NCBI GenBank assembly: GCA_963717465.1
Contig: OY970340.1
Coordinates: forward strand, 128,001 to 192,000
Direction of reading: 5' to 3'
Source of the DNA: Candidatus Bathyarchaeota archaeon
GTDB lineage: Archaea; Thermoproteota; Bathyarchaeia; Bathyarchaeales; Bathycorpusculaceae
Length of the DNA: 64,000 nucleotides
In this document: piece by piece, positions 933 to 6,507 of the stretch
How positions within the stretch are numbered: position 1 is the first letter of the stretch
Layout: every line of letters starts with the position of its first letter
The notes under the pieces: model-generated
Told to the model about the DNA's origin: nothing
The model's database searches: none
What the model saw: the letters and a program-made list of their open reading frames with translations, nothing else
Position numbers and translations under genes: made by a program

Positions 933-2507
933 TTAGAATCTGGCGCCCGTTCCTGTTTTGTCTGCCGTGTAGCCGCCTATTTGGTACATCTTATCATACT
1001 TAGCAATAATTTCATTCATTTTGTCAGCTACGTCTTTTGGTGGTAATGGATTTGGAAATTCCTTTACGATCTTGTTAGTCAGGGCGAAAGCGCGATCATC
1101 CATGGTAAGCTTGTCTTCAATCCACCGAAGATATTGCCTCGTTTCCCATAAGCCATAACCATGACGCATAGGATAGAAGCCAGTATCTACCATGTTTTGC
1201 AAAGTGTATTTTTCCTTCATGAAGTCTCCTCTTGGGGTCTTCGTGAGCCATACATCTTTCATGTATGCGCCGGATGAAAAGTCTAAGTCCTTGAAATACC
1301 ATGTCATCATTCGAAGCATTTCAGCTGTCACAGCATAGCCCCATGGATTGATTCCATTCGGACCTACGGTGGAACTCCAACATCCTGTCTGATCAGTAGC
1401 GCTTTGGAGGGCGTTAAACAGATTGTAACTCATTAGGCCATTTTGTGTGTCTGAACCGCCACTGTAACCTCCTATGCTTTGTCCAGGCCACATTGTTGCT
1501 TTTGGCAAACTGTAGTTGCGGTGCCAGAAGTTCACATGAAGAGATAGCGCTTTACCGAATTGATCACCACATGCTGCTAGCATTTGCGTGTACGGCTCCA
1601 TGGGCATCACCAGATCATAGGTCATGACGGGGATATGGCCTTTTGCGACTCCGCCCATTCCCAAACCTAAACTTACCGCCATTCCTATAGATGAAGCCAC
1701 AGTCACTGAGTAGGCGCCCGTTAAGCTAATGGGACCTTGGAAACCAGGTATGCACACGTCAGTGAAATCTATAAGCAGAGGCCTGTTATTCTTCCAGCCT
1801 TCCAACGTACCAGTCATTCTGTCGCAAGTCTTTTGTCCATAAACTAAGCCTGGAGTGTCTCCATGGTTAGTTATGAACGGTCTCTTCGCAAGCTCATCAA
1901 ATCCTCCAAGAACCTCAGCAGCTAAATCAGTATAGCATTCAATATGATCAATTGCATCAATATGCCAAATATGCTTGGTAGTACATTGAATAGTGCTGTT
2001 AAGATCATGAGTATCCACTGGCAAACCAGCCTCAGCCAAATCCATAGGCAGGAAAATTGGGCTCGTCATATCGAACTCTGGGAAGTACTCAACAATTTTC
2101 TGCTCTCTCCAGTTGTCAGCGTCAACACAGTCTCTGAATTCAAAAAGTCGCGTAGCCGGATTCCATTTACCATAGAGAGCCATAATCCCAAAACCGCCTG
2201 CAAGAGTTCTGTTGCTTCCAGCGGATAAGAAACAGTCATTCTGGGGCGTCCTACCTGGCAAAATCTGCTCACTTGGTATTGCATTTACGGCTTCTACTGC
2301 AAGACCCTGAGACATCTTAGCAATTCCTTTCTTCTCGTCAACAGTGCAACCTAAATCCTTATAGACTTTGCAAAGCTTAGGAGTAACGCCTCCTACTCCA
2401 ATTCTTTCCAGCAGAAACATTGCGGCTTCATGGATTGACATTAATTCTTCTTTCGTTGCTAAAGAAGGGTTAGTGAACCTTCTAGGTACATTTATTCCTG
2501 TTCTCAA
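933..2507 (-). CDS. mttB: MttB-superfamily methyltransferase, non-pyrrolysine (paralog 1)
   Basis: 524 aa with MttB-like N-terminus (IHEAAMFLLERIGV) and C-terminus; DTQNGLMS aligns with the DxQxGxE-Pyl motif, with Ser at the Pyl position; TTG start with GGAG SD; adjacent corrinoid gene. Confidence 0.82.
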   Translation of the reverse strand: MRTGINVPRRFTNPSLATKEELMSIHEAAMFLLERIGVGGVTPKLCKVYKDLGCTVDEKKGIAKMSQGLAVEAVNAIPSEQILPGRTPQNDCFLSAGSNRTLAGGFGIMALYGKWNPATRLFEFRDCVDADNWREQKIVEYFPEFDMTSPIFLPMDLAEAGLPVDTHDLNSTIQCTTKHIWHIDAIDHIECYTDLAAEVLGGFDELAKRPFITNHGDTPGLVYGQKTCDRMTGTLEGWKNNRPLLIDFTDVCIPGFQGPISLTGAYSVTVASSIGMAVSLGLGMGGVAKGHIPVMTYDLVMPMEPYTQMLAACGDQFGKALSLHVNFWHRNYSLPKATMWPGQSIGGYSGGSDTQNGLMSYNLFNALQSATDQTGCWSSTVGPNGINPWGYAVTAEMLRMMTWYFKDLDFSSGAYMKDVWLTKTPRGDFMKEKYTLQNMVDTGFYPMRHGYGLWETRQYLRWIEDKLTMDDRAFALTNKIVKEFPNPLPPKDVADKMNEIIAKYDKMYQIGGYTADKTGTGARF

Positions 2508-2562
2508 TTTTTTTCTCTCCTAATTTTTAATTGTTTTTGACACGAAATTAAATATATGCGGT

Positions 2563-2684
2563 CTGATGTGTATTTAAGGTTAAATTATAAGTCAGTTTCA
2601 GCTTTTGCCACAAAATAAGACATTTCAACAATTGTCAATGACATTATCACATAATGAACAGAGTTTTTGGCACAATGTGCAACA
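2563..2684 (-). promoter_or_regulatory. Conserved promoter module, copy A (mttB1)
   Basis: TATTTAAGGTTA at 2571 (TATA/BRE on minus); boxes with ACA cores at 2610, 2641 and 2672 (31-bp period). Confidence 0.85.
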
Positions 2685-2828
2685 ATATATTTTGAACCTT
2701 TATCTGAAAAATCACAAATCAGAAAACATTTTAAAAGGAAAACAAGAAAACAAATGTCCGTTTTTTCACATTAACGATAAATAAGCAACTAAACAAAAAA
2801 ATAAAAAAAGAGTATTGAGGTTTTCTTC

Positions 2829-5145
2829 TTAAGGTCCCATGGGCCCGATGTTGGCTGAGTATACTTTTGCAAGATTAGCCTTGAAGCACCATGCACCAAG
2901 TTCAGGGCTAAGATGCTCTGGGCCGTCAGGCACTGTAACGTTAATGTTCCAGTCTGCCCATCCATAAAGCGTTGGTTCCTCAGCCGGCAACTCAGGACGC
3001 CACCAGCCGTGTTCTGGGTCGATTATCTTGGGGTTAACACCAAAATCATAACGTACTGTCTGTCTGCATCTGCCAAGCGGTGTTTCAATGTAAACCCATT
3101 CGCCATCTCCGATACCCATATTCCGTGCTGTAAGTGGATGCATCTTTACACGTGGAACCGGACGTAAATGACGCATTAACGTGAGATGTCGATGTTCACC
3201 ATGCTGCGCTTCTTGGAATCTGGCTCCACTGCACATAATCAGCGGATAGTCTTTTGCAATGTCTGGTGCACTGATCGGTGTCCATGCACATTCCACATAG
3301 TACGGCAACGGATTGTACCCAAGTTCTTCTAAGATGGTTGAGTAGAACGCAACTTTGCCCTCAGGGGTACCAAAGCCTCTAACCAGCCCAGTCTCTGGAT
3401 CGATCTCTTCGTATTTCTTGAACCTTGGCTCATAGGGCGGAACACCCTTCCATTCTTCAATAACTTGCTTTCGTGTCCAACCAGCGGGCTCGTAGAACCA
3501 AGCTTGAAATTCCTCTAGAGTCTTCCAATGCCAAACTTCATCAACTCTTTGTTTACCGACAACGGCGACAGCTAGGTCTCTGAATATGATGCTGTCGTCT
3601 TTTAGATCCCAAAGTCCAGGTATTTTCTGGGGTAGTGCGCGGTCGCCTGCAATCTCAAACTCAATCTGGCCTTGACATGAACAGGTTGCGTACCCAGATG
3701 GCCTCTCAAATTGACTGGTACCGGGCAGCACGTAATCTGCTATCATAGCCTCTGGAGTCATGGAAGCGCATTCTACGTAAACAAAGAGGTCAAGTTTCTT
3801 TAAAGCCTCGTAAACTTTCTTGGTGTTCGGATAGCCTCTCATGGGACCTACTTCACCGGAAAGCATAGCTTTAATGGGGTATGGTTTTCCCGTTAAAATC
3901 GTATCTATCGTGCTAGGGAAGTTTGGACCTATTGGCCCAGCGGATGGAACTCCCTTCCAGTATCCTTTATCCATTCCTGCAGCAATAATTGCACCTGCGC
4001 CAGGATAAGCCAGCATCTTATACTTGTCCGCTCCTATCTGGTTTGACATCATTGACATGTCACAAGCGTTTATGACATCAGTATGCATCTCAGTACCTGA
4101 GTGGAATTTGGGTTTTGCATGCAGATATTCGCCGCCTTCTACGTCAATGTTGCCTGTTAACGCAGGTAACATATATTTTGATCGGATGTTGCTCAAAGAG
4201 TTCCTGCCTGCTGATTCGATTGCGTAGCCGAATGGAAAATCGCATGGATGATTTTTCGCTATAAATCGGGCAGCTTCTTTTATCTTTTCAGCTGGAATCC
4301 AAGTAATTTCCGCAGCCTTCTCAGGCGTATACTGCTTAACGCGCTCTTTGAGCTTATCAAATCCAAAACACCATTTCTCCACAAAATCATGATCATACAA
4401 GTCCTCCTCAATGAGAACGTTCAACATAGCCATATTCAGCGCAGTATCAGTTCCAGGCCTAATTGCTAACCAAACTTCTGAAAGTCTACCAGTCTCAGTA
4501 AATCTTGGATCAACAGTGAGCATTTTTACGCCAGCATCTACACCTGCAACAAACCCAGGCCACGAATACGTCCAAGACTCTCTTGGGTTCGTACCAGATG
4601 CAAAGATACCCTTAGTCTTACCAGGAATTATGTTTGCATACGTTAATCCCACGCCATAGCCTACTCCTAAGGCTTGGATCGTGGGTCCGGCTCATGTCTG
4701 AGCAGCAGCGGAACCAAAGTTTGGGCTACCCATCATGATAAAGAAAGCAGCCTGTCCAAGACCCAGATTCGCAGCTTCGCCCGGTGCCGCTAAAGCCGCA
4801 AATTGATTCTCCACCGTACTTTTCCTTGATTTCTTTCACTTTTGTGGATATTTCTTCGGTCGCTTGTTCCCATGATATTCTTTGCCATTTGCCTTCTCCA
4901 CGTTTGCCTATTCTTTTTATTGGATACATCGGTCTGTCCTTGTTGTAAATGTATTCTAAACTGTACTTCCATTTTACACAATAGGGGCCCGGATTGAACG
5001 GGCTTTCCCAATCAGGCTCGACCTTTGTGATTTTTCCATTCTCAACAGTCTCAACAAGTTGACAGGAACCAGTACTGCAAAAACCGCAAACACACCTGTG
5101 AATCCCATCGAAACTCTTTGGATCTTCAAGTTTTTCACTCATCAT
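2829..5145 (-). CDS. Mo/W-bisPGD oxidoreductase (DMSO reductase family, acetylene-hydratase-like branch); putative selenoprotein; one frameshift at ~4760-4778
   Basis: N-terminal CGFCSTGSC...C 4Fe-4S motif, RIGKRGEGKWQRISWEQA, DPRFTET, RPGTDTAL, ADYVLP and a C-terminal dinucleotide-binding domain. In-frame TGA at 4692-4694 within GSPNFGSAAAQT*AGP. Start ATG at 5145 with GGAG SD. Confidence 0.9.
4648..4685 (-). other. Bacterial-type SECIS-like stem-loop immediately 3' of the in-frame UGA
   Basis: UGA-GCCGGA-CCCACG-AU-CCA-AGCCU-U-A-GGAG-U-AGGCU-A-UGG-CGUGGG: 6+3+5 bp helices, a bulged U and a G-led apical loop 24 nt after the UGA. Confidence 0.7.
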
Positions 5146-5196
5146 CCTATCTCCTATTTTTACTGTGTTTTTAGCACAAAAATGAATGTATGCAGC

Positions 5197-5318
5197 CTGA
5201 TGGATATTTAAGGTTAGATTATAAGGCAGTTTGGATTTTTGCCACAAAATAAGGCATATAAGCAATTCTAATTGACATTATAGCATGAAAAGTATTTATT
5301 TTGGCACAATGTGCAACA
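5197..5318 (-). promoter_or_regulatory. Conserved promoter module, copy B (Mo/W enzyme)
   Basis: TATTTAAGGTTA at 5205; GCCACAAAATAAGGCA, TGACATTAT and GGCACAATGTGCAACA lie at the same offsets as in copy A (ACA cores 5244, 5275, 5306). Confidence 0.85.
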
Positions 5319-5473
5319 GCACTTTAGGAACCTTTGTTAGGTACGAAAAACCACTCTTTTCTTGTTGATTGCTTTCCAGTTAGTTTTTGACTGATTAGTT
5401 AGACTTTGCAATTTAGAGTATCCTGAGATTGCTTTCTAGAGGAAATGATTCTTCGAGATTCTGAAAAATTCTA

Positions 5474-5588
5474 ACACATTGTGTTAAAAAAAACCGCAAT
5501 TTAATGCAACATTTCAAAACATTAGTTACCTCTTTCAGCTTGTTTTGAGGCAGAAATTTGAAAGCAATATACGACTTAGCTTAAATAA
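5474..5588 (+). promoter_or_regulatory. Diverged inverted copy (E) of the promoter module, upstream of the SDR gene
   Basis: ACACATTGTGT (5474), CTTGTTTTGAGGCA (5539) and CTTAAATA (5580-5587) are reverse-complement equivalents; box1-TATA spacing is identical; the middle box is weak. Confidence 0.6.
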
Positions 5589-5661
5589 CATTGTAATCTC
5601 CTATTATTTTTCAATAAGAAAAGTTGGAGATTTTGACAAAGATAGAATTGAGGAATTTAAG

Positions 5662-6507
5662 ATGGACATGAAGAATTTATTTGGTTATGAAAAGCAGACA
5701 GTGGTGGTTGTCGATGCCGCCTCTGGAATTGATAAGGAAACAGCTTAGATATTAGTTGAACTTGACGCCGAAGTGTACGGTTTAGATATTCAGGAAACCA
5801 AGACTTCAGGTGTTAAGTACATTAATGTAGACTTGAGGAAAAACAATCAATCGAGGCTGCAATCGCGAAGTTGCCTTCAAAGGTTGACAAGATTTTCAAT
5901 GTTGTAGGAATTGGCGAATCGCCGAATCGCGTTGATATAGTTCTAATAAATTTCGTTGGACACAGACATATCATTGAAAATCTTCTTCCACGGATGCCAG
6001 ATGGCAGTGGAGCTATTGCGATAGTTTCATCCCTTGGCGGCTTGGCTTGGTTGATGAACCTGCAGAATGTGCAAACTTTTCTTGCCATACCAGATTGGGA
6101 AGGCGCCGTTGCATGGCTTGAAGAACATAAAGAGGATCCTGAAATCATCGGCGGACCAAAGCAGAACATTAGAGAATATAATTTTTCCAAAGAATGTCTC
6201 GTTGCATACACCAAGGCACGCGCTTATCAGCTATCTCAAAGAGGCATTAGATTAAACACAATCATGCCTGGTGTCACTCAAACTCCGTTGTTGAAGGGAA
6301 TGACCGATGAACAGGGGAAAAAACATAATATCACTTATTGGACGTTACGCGAAGGCTGCTGAACAGGCATGGACGCTCGTATTTCTAAACAGCAATTTAG
6401 CAAGTTACATTAGTGGAGCAGACATCGTCGTTGACTATGGATTCTCAGGCGGCATATACACCGGTCAAGTAGATCTGTCAAAGACAGGTTGGCTGCCCTC
6501 TGTTTAA
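5662..6507 (+). pseudogene. Short-chain dehydrogenase/reductase pseudogene (3-alpha-HSD / coniferyl-alcohol dehydrogenase-like)
   Basis: Pieces in several frames; YNFSK catalytic motif, NTIMPG and ISGADIVVDYG. In-frame TAG at 5746, Rossmann motif degraded to VVVDAASGID, and two frameshifts. Confidence 0.75.

Follow-up and report, generated by a model that had tools for sequence, protein, structure and literature searches.

Signals that mark a UGA codon for selenocysteine (Sec) are divided by where they lie. Two reviews, from 2024 and 2026, place the Sec insertion sequence (SECIS) of archaea and eukaryotes in 3' untranslated regions (UTRs) and that of bacteria in coding regions (PMC11227280, PMC13188914). 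The eaSECIS of Methanococcales and Methanopyrus and the Asgard elements are described as lying in the 3' (rarely the 5') UTR, with a GAA_A internal loop or a GA quartet (PMC13188914, PMC11227280). Eukaryotes in addition have Sec redefinition elements (SREs) close to the UGA, which disfavor termination (PMC4561486, PMC8704476), and the stem-loops of SPS genes have been proposed to descend from bacterial SECIS elements (Mariotti et al., PMC4561486). Here we analyzed a stretch of 64,000 nucleotides (nt), called the window (C1:128001-192000 of a single 3,053,889-base contig with 40% G+C), from an archaeon that is by all signs a member of Bathyarchaeia. Our subject is a gene on its minus strand for a putative acetylene-hydratase-like molybdenum/tungsten (Mo/W) enzyme, in which an in-frame TGA is followed, 6 nt later, by a hairpin in the coding sequence. 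This TGA is very probably a Sec codon at the metal ligand of the enzyme. It is also probable, on the comparative data given below, that the hairpin is an in-gene signal for this codon and that the codon is read by archaeal factors.

The use of Sec in this lineage is not itself new. The first-pass annotation of the window had treated it as a lineage not known to use Sec, which does not hold, as Sec encoding together with a PSTK-aSelB fusion has been published for diverse Bathyarchaeota and one Archaeoglobus (Mukai et al. 2022, PMC8762117; echoed in PMC9499178). The genome studied here has the same fused gene, in two copies. The main text of that paper does not contain the word SECIS, and the position of the signal and the enzyme family are not described in it; the position of the signal is the part for which we found no printed account, and Sec use in Bathyarchaeota was already known (PMC8762117). 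In the literature covered, with subscription journals outside that coverage, we found no in-gene SECIS in Bathyarchaeia or TACK (Thaumarchaeota, Aigarchaeota, Crenarchaeota and Korarchaeota) archaea and no Sec-type acetylene hydratase.

The features of the locus, including its open reading frames (ORFs, with lengths in amino acids, aa) and the evidence for each, are as follows.

2829..5145, minus strand: whole gene, acetylene-hydratase-like Mo/W enzyme with a bis-molybdopterin guanine dinucleotide (bis-MGD) cofactor (Pfam domains and match to PDB 2e7z)
4726..5145, minus strand: N-terminal ORF with start ATGATG (5145) and the Fe4S4 Cys motif, up to GTGR (ORF list, Pfam)
4776..4777, minus strand: AA where nine paralogs have a single A, a one-base insertion between GTGR and AANLGLG (MAFFT alignment of 10 paralogs)
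4692..4694, minus strand: in-frame UGA near codon 151, predicted to encode Sec in the Mo/W ligand column (alignment to homologs and 2e7z)
4686..4691, minus strand: spacer of 6 nt (GCCGGA) between UGA and hairpin (same spacing at both HdrA-MvhD UGAs)
4648..4685, minus strand: coding-region hairpin, candidate in-gene Sec recoding signal (fold, synonymous conservation, pair counts)
2829..4652, minus strand: intact 607-aa ORF downstream of the UGA, stop TAA 2831-2829 included (ratio of nonsynonymous to synonymous divergence, dN/dS, of 0.09-0.14 against paralogs)
2795..2809, minus strand: T7-A-T7 tract, 20-36 nt past the stop (sequence inspection, folding)

As assembled, the gene is in two pieces, an N-terminal ORF of 140 aa and the remainder, which contains the UGA; if one extra A is disregarded, it is about 771 codons long. 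The N-terminal ORF begins MMSEKLEDPKSFDGIHRCVCGFCSTGSCQ (the N-terminus of the paralogs is MMSEKLEDPKSFDG), reaches GTGRS and then, as a result of the frameshift, stops at TAG 4728-4726. The minus-strand frame around the TGA is FFIMMGSPNFGSAAAQT-TGA-AGPTIQALGVGYGVG. The frame one base out of register reads AANLGLGQAAFFIMMGSPNFGSAAAQT-TGA-AGPTIQALGVGYGVG and then stays open for 620 codons, to TAA 2831-2829. The TGA (4694-4692) sits 14 codons upstream of the GTG that opens the 607-aa ORF (4652..2829), and translation of the minus strand bore out the claim that the two share one frame.

The predicted product is a cytoplasmic W/Mo bis-MGD enzyme of the acetylene hydratase type with an N-terminal 4Fe-4S domain. 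Three Pfam families span the gene, namely Molybdop_Fe4S4 (PF04879), Molybdopterin (PF00384) and Molydop_binding (PF01568); the N-terminal piece holds the first and the start of the second, and the remainder holds Molybdopterin and Molydop_binding. A profile of the family matched acetylene hydratase (PDB 2e7z) with E = 1.9e-109, profile positions 12-643 falling on residues 120-726, and the next-best solved structure was thiosulfate reductase at E = 1e-55. The TGA column aligns with the Cys of GSPNWTSAMYMC ('SAMYMC') in 2e7z, which we take to be the tungsten ligand Cys141. The enzyme of Pelobacter acetylenicus, the best solved relative, agrees with the window gene in the order of its domains and in the motif GSPN-x7-ligand and differs in that its ligand is Cys where the window gene has UGA. 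Cys is also the ligand listed for the acetylene hydratase family (PMC10100899). When we looked at 163 loci outside the lineage, 101 homologs could be aligned at this column, and Cys was found in 97 of them (71 TGC and 26 TGT codons; the others were 2 TTA, 1 GCT and 1 TTC, with no TGA), compared with TGA in 11 paralog sites of the genome. We file the product as acetylene-hydratase-like and not as an acetylene hydratase, given that its apparent ligand codon is UGA and not Cys. The best match among genome contigs is bacterial and 41% identical, and matches in metagenome contigs have 32-41% identity. Relatives of 29-37% identity are plentiful in Eggerthellaceae/Coriobacteriia, a group whose expanded Mo enzymes include catechol dehydroxylases. 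Four proteins of 40-44% identity (P0033, P0058, P0071 and P0107), probably from bacteria, are filed as ORFs of about 590 aa that open with 'M(I/F/T)GWP(L/H)R' shortly past the ligand column, and they may represent Sec versions of this branch of enzymes.

The genome contains eight full-length copies of the gene, the one in the window included, with 69-94% mutual identity and open across the TGA; the other seven are intact. There is an additional distant copy with 43% identity, and decayed pieces of the family are found at C1:616993-618946 (split), 2797286-2799215 (with TAG and TAA in the part 2797286-2798770) and 1076144-1076551 (a 137-aa fragment). All 11 paralog sites that cover the ligand column have TGA, and a Cys-type relative is present in the same genome at C1:1818179-1820047 (33% identity). 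Synonymous divergence (dS) between copies is 1.05-1.68 and dN/dS is 0.09-0.14; the copies are old, and purifying selection acts on them both before and after the TGA. The family was not found in 119 other species of the genus (E <= 1e-30), and among 60 relatives sampled from the genus and order, homologs occurred in one genome only and had no internal stop. A second NCBI assembly has protein orthologs of at least 90% identity for three of the paralogs. All close relatives in the protein collection are filed as ORFs of 560-607 aa whose start lies shortly past the Sec column, which is what a stop codon in front of them would produce.

None of the genes for Sec synthesis or delivery lies in the window, as had been stated earlier; they map to C1:845 kb, 951-955 kb and 2.83 Mb. 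A search of the genome for tRNA-Sec, SelD, a synthase and a Sec elongation factor (EF-Sec) found all of them, and the route is the archaeal one, with PSTK and SepSecS. Two tRNA-Sec genes scored 71.8 and 61.8 bits (Rfam cut-off 47), with SepSecS (488.9 bits) adjoining the first; SelD scored 240 bits and has an in-frame TGA of its own. ORFs of 732 and 730 aa encode the two PSTK-aSelB fusions, in each of which the PSTK and SelB matches share one open frame (744 and 740 aa); their Pfam domains are KTI12, GTP_EFTU, D2 and aSelB_III. All these matches were above the curated cut-offs except that of PSTK (151 vs 290.5 bits), which is fused to aSelB. The second fusion (C1:2827783-2829725, 730 aa) stands beside the second tRNA-Sec, is 54% identical to the first and has a lower GTP_EFTU score (69.9 vs 109.3 bits); it is a candidate adaptor for the hairpin. 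At E <= 1e-40 the fusion has 264 relatives, and among six named ones listed, four are from Bathyarchaeota/Bathyarchaeia, one from Nanoarchaeia and one from Nitrososphaerota. Its matches in the Protein Atlas were only bacterial CysN/CysC-like kinase-GTPase fusions at 0.89 and are uninformative for taxonomy. The alignment with the Cys of 2e7z, the 97 of 101 homologs with Cys and this full set of Sec genes together support the earlier proposal that the UGA encodes Sec at the Mo/W ligand column. Reassignment of UGA was rejected, as TGA is the ordinary stop of 253 of the 1032 ORFs of at least 300 codons.

That proposal had come with two possible sources for the decoding system, a transferred bacterial one or an undescribed archaeal mechanism. 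Under the first, SelA and a winged-helix SelB would have been acquired with the gene and would read a true bacterial SECIS. The nearest relatives of the enzyme outside the lineage are indeed mostly bacterial (29-41% identical), and the hairpin fits three of the four constraints of the bacterial SECIS model. However, within the genome, whose completeness is estimated at 88%, the best SelA match reached 20.5 bits against a cut-off of 267.9. The SelB profile was matched at positions 2-338 of 581 only, Pfam gave aSelB_III with no match to the bacterial winged-helix families, and PSTK and SepSecS are present. We consider a bacterial system refuted for the assembled genome and would give it hardly any weight. 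The undescribed archaeal mechanism is the reading that we favor.

The hairpin of the window copy has 14 base pairs according to RNAfold. A basal helix CCCACG/CGUGGG is followed by an AU bulge, a CCA/UGG helix, a bulged A on the 3' side, an AGCCU/AGGCU helix and a 7-nt loop, UAGGAGU (4663-4669), and the GGAG of the loop begins 25 nt past the UGA. The first-pass annotation had the helices and the place of GGAG right, but the unpaired bases are not one U: two (AU) bulge out on the 5' side, and one A does so on the 3' side. The minimum free energy (MFE) is -19.9 kcal/mol (z = -2.43; 3 of 200 shuffles were equally stable), and the 0.1% quantile of fold energy, taken over the 50 nt after each of the 115,348 TGAs in the genome, is -19.3. 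The SRE of SELENON studied by Howard et al. in 2005 reportedly has a spacer of 6 nt as well. An Rfam search in E-value mode over 2400-5400 gave no SECIS or other credible family; its only row was a viral 3'-UTR model with E = 9.8.

All 11 paralog sites fold alike, with MFEs of -17.9 to -24.5 kcal/mol over 70 nt. The fold starts 6 nt past the UGA at the paralog sites and 7 nt past it in the distant copy, and the 43%-identical paralog forms a 15-bp hairpin of different sequence with a shifted basal stem, CCAACG/CGUUGG. The Cys-type paralog of the genome (33%) folds at -8.4 kcal/mol only. Covariation could be followed in the genome's own paralogs only, as closer relatives with DNA were not found. 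When eight copies were aligned by codon, residues shared by a pair of copies also had identical codons at a rate of 0.80 in the 15-codon window that begins two codons past the UGA, against a gene mean of 0.56; this window ranks first of 634. In the alignment of 11 sequences, standard pairing was found in 89.0% of the pair cells, compared with 83.9% in shuffles (0 of 500 reached it), and fell to 23-47% when the partners were slid; five pairs had changes on both sides (3 of 500 shuffles). Among the changes that preserve pairing, U-A became C-G by way of two synonymous Leu codons (two copies), G-C became G-U at codons for Gly, and the 43%-identical paralog has A-U in place of C-G. Unpaired synonymous sites (alignment columns 6, 30, 54, 57 and 60) vary freely. 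At paired column 39 (Tyr, TAT or TAC), pairing is broken in some copies. With pair-preserving changes and top-ranking synonymous conservation, the hairpin has comparative marks of a recoding signal. The one public run listed, an independent data set with 0.04 of the sequence words, gave a 178-nt contig across 4596-4773 with 93% identity; no RNA run was listed. The contig retains the TGA, and its 13 differences all fall outside 4633-4688, though as one contig with a depth of 2.8 it is weak evidence.

In an independent gene family, the HdrA-MvhD fusion of the genome has two in-frame TGAs (LDCSI-U-IEGP and MCNW-U-GYAGAD). A hairpin begins exactly 6 nt past each of them, with -25.8 kcal/mol at the first and about -23 at the second. 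Across the genus we compared 30 loci of this gene (L206-L235), of which 9 have TGA at both sites and 21 have TGC or TGT at both. Hairpins were present at both UGAs in all nine UGA-type genes (means -26.5 and -23.2, standard deviations 0.5 and 0.3) and in none of the 21 Cys-type genes, where the means were -6.8/-7.4 and -10.3/-11.9 and the best single fold was -16.9. The encoded peptides are nearly identical in the two types (IEGPKMVD vs IEGPRMVE), so that here the hairpin goes with UGA and not with Cys codons. Genome-wide, 777 TGAs are followed by a fold of -16 or better, which in 54 cases starts at position 6. Only 20 of the 777 are in a read-through coding context, and 12 of these 20 are the Mo/W sites and HdrA site 1. 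By our own reading, the three hairpin types are built alike: a spacer of 6 nt, a basal stem of 6 bp, an interruption in which an A on the 3' side stays unpaired, then the upper stem, and a loop whose centre is 22-26 nt from the UGA. Both HdrA-MvhD types occur in this genome, the Cys-type at C1:1502431-1504851, and further partial matches of the Sec type were seen in genomes G087 and G108.

Several points weigh against the hairpin as an in-gene Sec signal. The 0.80 codon identity is the top value but not an outlier, as the runner-up window (codons +100) reaches 0.776. The basal stem, invariant among close paralogs, encodes the conserved GPT...GVG, and its conservation is in part that of the protein. 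The UGA-type HdrA genes form one clade with 84-86% identity, and the contrast of 9 with 21 genes reflects few independent events. The archaeal aSelB has no known SECIS-binding domain. The loop UAGGAGU has its G's at positions 3-4 and not at 1-2 as in bacterial SECIS elements, and the window copy is frameshifted as assembled. Finally, the UGA of SelD (VHG-U-SCKL) has no hairpin at +6, its first 50 nt folding at -6.4 only; either the rule is not universal or another signal exists. Over 90 nt, SelD folds at -26.8, compared with a mean of -26.4 for 27 TGC-type orthologs, without any structure specific to UGA, and nothing striking was seen in its flanks, neither in 150 nt upstream nor in the 60 nt that separate it from the next gene. 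This SelD (C1:951702) is of the UGA type and at most 73% identical to other SelDs of the genus. Nearly all of the 82 genus genomes with SelD have the Cys type; there is one TGA, in G016.

Some of these points would be expected if the hairpin had no role in decoding and were a by-product of a conserved peptide, of codon bias or of gene conversion among paralogs. The invariant GPT and GVG are encoded by the basal stem, another conserved stretch nearly equals it in codon identity, and the paralogs share one genome, in which gene conversion is possible. However, unpaired synonymous sites vary, paired sites show either no change or changes that preserve the pair, and the 43%-identical paralog has its 15-bp hairpin in a different sequence. 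The Cys-type HdrA orthologs encode nearly the same peptide and have no hairpin, and the Cys-type paralog of the enzyme has no comparable fold. We regard a mere by-product as very improbable.

It is also conceivable that the hairpin is an SRE-like helper only, which slows the ribosome and disfavors termination as in SELENON, with the true SECIS or specificity signal elsewhere. The machinery is of the archaeal/eukaryal type with an aSelB lacking a SECIS-binding domain, and SRE stem-loops beside the UGA are documented in eukaryotes, including SPS2 (PMC4561486, PMC8704476). A hint of another signal comes from SelD, where any decoding of the UGA would have to do without a hairpin of this kind. Against this stand the 3' flanks. 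The U-rich 3' UTR without hairpin that the first-pass annotation had reported for the window copy was found as described: no stable hairpin is present, and the T7-A-T7 tract, similar to an archaeal terminator, comes no more than 37 nt after the stop. The flanks of nine paralogs likewise have oligo-T within about 35 nt and no conserved stable structure in the first 260 nt past the stop, the best 60-nt folds there being -7.6 to -14.4. Rfam was blank over 2400-5400. In HdrA-MvhD each UGA has its own hairpin, as with bacterial SECIS elements and unlike a single shared UTR element. A helper role alone seems unlikely to us, though less so than a by-product, and we return to the hairpin as the signal itself.

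Compared with bacterial SECIS elements, the hairpin is similar in being a simple stem-loop inside the coding sequence directly 3' of the UGA (model in PMC13188914). When scored by that model, it agrees in loop size (3-9 nt in the model, 7 nt here), upper stem (4-16 vs 5-8 bp), UGA-loop spacing (16-37 vs 22 nt) and energy (MFE <= -7.5 vs -19.9), but it does not follow the rule of a G in the first two loop positions (PMC13188914). By our reading, 7 of the 11 paralogs (UAGGAUU or UAGGGUU) fit the N1-G-G-N-N2 variant of the loop rule only. It differs from bacterial SECIS elements also in its host, an archaeon with PSTK/SepSecS and an aSelB without the winged-helix reader, and in the lack of an Rfam SECIS match. 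With the eaSECIS and the Asgard eSECIS-like elements it has in common the same kind of biosynthetic machinery, and with eaSECIS also three consecutive G-C/C-G pairs (GCC/GGC) within the upper stem, plus an unpaired A on the 3' side below it. Unlike eaSECIS, it lies in the ORF, 6 nt past the UGA, has AU (5') and A (3') in place of GAA_A, and belongs to a gene whose 3' UTR is bare oligo-T. Eukaryotic SREs (SELENON, SPS2) resemble it as stem-loops in the ORF a few nt 3' of the UGA in a PSTK/SepSecS system (PMC4561486, PMC8704476, PMC6844570). SREs, however, aid a 3'-UTR SECIS that is bound by SBP2, and here no UTR SECIS was found.

The predicted route to Sec-tRNA is the archaeal one, with PSTK, SepSecS and SelD, and delivery would be by the PSTK-aSelB fusion. 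If the hairpin is the signal, it would tell the ribosome, from inside the coding sequence, to read the UGA as Sec. With the UGA in the A site, the mRNA channel would have the lower stem at its entrance, and the loop would be about 23 nt downstream. Such a hairpin could hinder termination, recruit the EF-Sec complex, or do both. Whether Bathyarchaeia have a third arrangement in the full sense is, in our judgment, evenly balanced. It would combine archaeal/eukaryal biosynthesis and PSTK-aSelB with a plain in-ORF hairpin 6 nt past each UGA and no UTR element, would be intermediate between the bacterial SECIS and the eukaryotic SRE, and would include the first Sec-ligated members of the acetylene hydratase branch, with about 11 copies in a single genome.

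An archaeon that has archaeal factors and in-gene hairpins as signals would break the division of SECIS elements into UTR and coding types. It bears on how bacterial signals are related to archaeal and eukaryotic ones and on whether the SRE descends from a bacterial-type SECIS (PMC4561486), and it makes the question testable with few parts, namely the hairpin, tRNA-Sec and the PSTK-aSelB fusion. There are also consequences for annotation. Gene callers truncate these genes, with relatives filed as ORFs of about 596-607 aa that start just after the UGA, and SECIS searches based on UTRs would miss the Bathyarchaeal selenoproteome. The putatively Se-ligated acetylene-hydratase-like family, with its expansion in one species and no match in 119 congeners, points to a metabolism that is specific to the lineage.

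The state of the window copy is a separate matter. The frameshift reported earlier is real in the assembly and consists of one extra A, about 82 nt upstream of the TGA. The insertion makes the sole gap column, at 4777, and turns GTGR-AANLGLG into GTGRS-CESGSW...*; none of the nine aligned paralogs has the extra A. The 178-nt contig ends 3 nt short of the insertion; the only other sequence from that run was a 32-nt piece. Programmed frameshifting at the extra A was set aside, as no paralog has the insertion and, by our reading, there is no evident slippery or re-pairing site at GGG-CGA-A. If the A is real, the copy would be dead, translation would end at TAG 4728-4726, and its UGA and hairpin would be relics. 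In keeping with this, the A is unique among the 10 aligned paralogs, other copies of the family have decayed (C1:2797286-2798770, 616993-618946 and 1076144), and the adjoining short-chain dehydrogenase gene, which has one TAG and is frameshifted twice, is a pseudogene. On the other hand, the copy is otherwise undamaged: at columns that do not vary among the other copies it has 7 singleton changes, and 4 of the 6 other copies with such changes have more. In an assembly of one contig, an indel of a single base may also reflect an assembly error. We think that a dead copy, which would be a very recent pseudogene, and an assembly error have even odds.

The short-chain dehydrogenase gene (5488-6507, plus strand) is in three frame pieces, with TAG at 5746-5748 (GIDKETA-TAG-ILVELDAEV) and frameshifts near 5870-5907 and 6304-6362. 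It is most simply read as a pseudogene, and aragorn lists no tRNA-Pyl for this genome. On the minus strand, the Mo/W gene is directly followed by genes for an MttB-superfamily methyltransferase (933-2507, no in-frame TAG) and a corrinoid B12-binding protein (255-908). Speculatively, these two could form a methyl-transfer module and hint at the class of substrate, such as methoxylated or hydroxylated compounds. A palindromic motif, GCACATTGTGCCAAAA, followed about 60 nt on by TTATTTTGTGGCAAAA, is found upstream of both the Mo/W gene and the MttB-like gene (about 5295-5314 and about 2661-2680, minus strand) and also at C1:118728. With 2 strict and 2 weak matches in the genome it was ruled out as a family-wide element, and it may be a local operator common to adjoining promoters.

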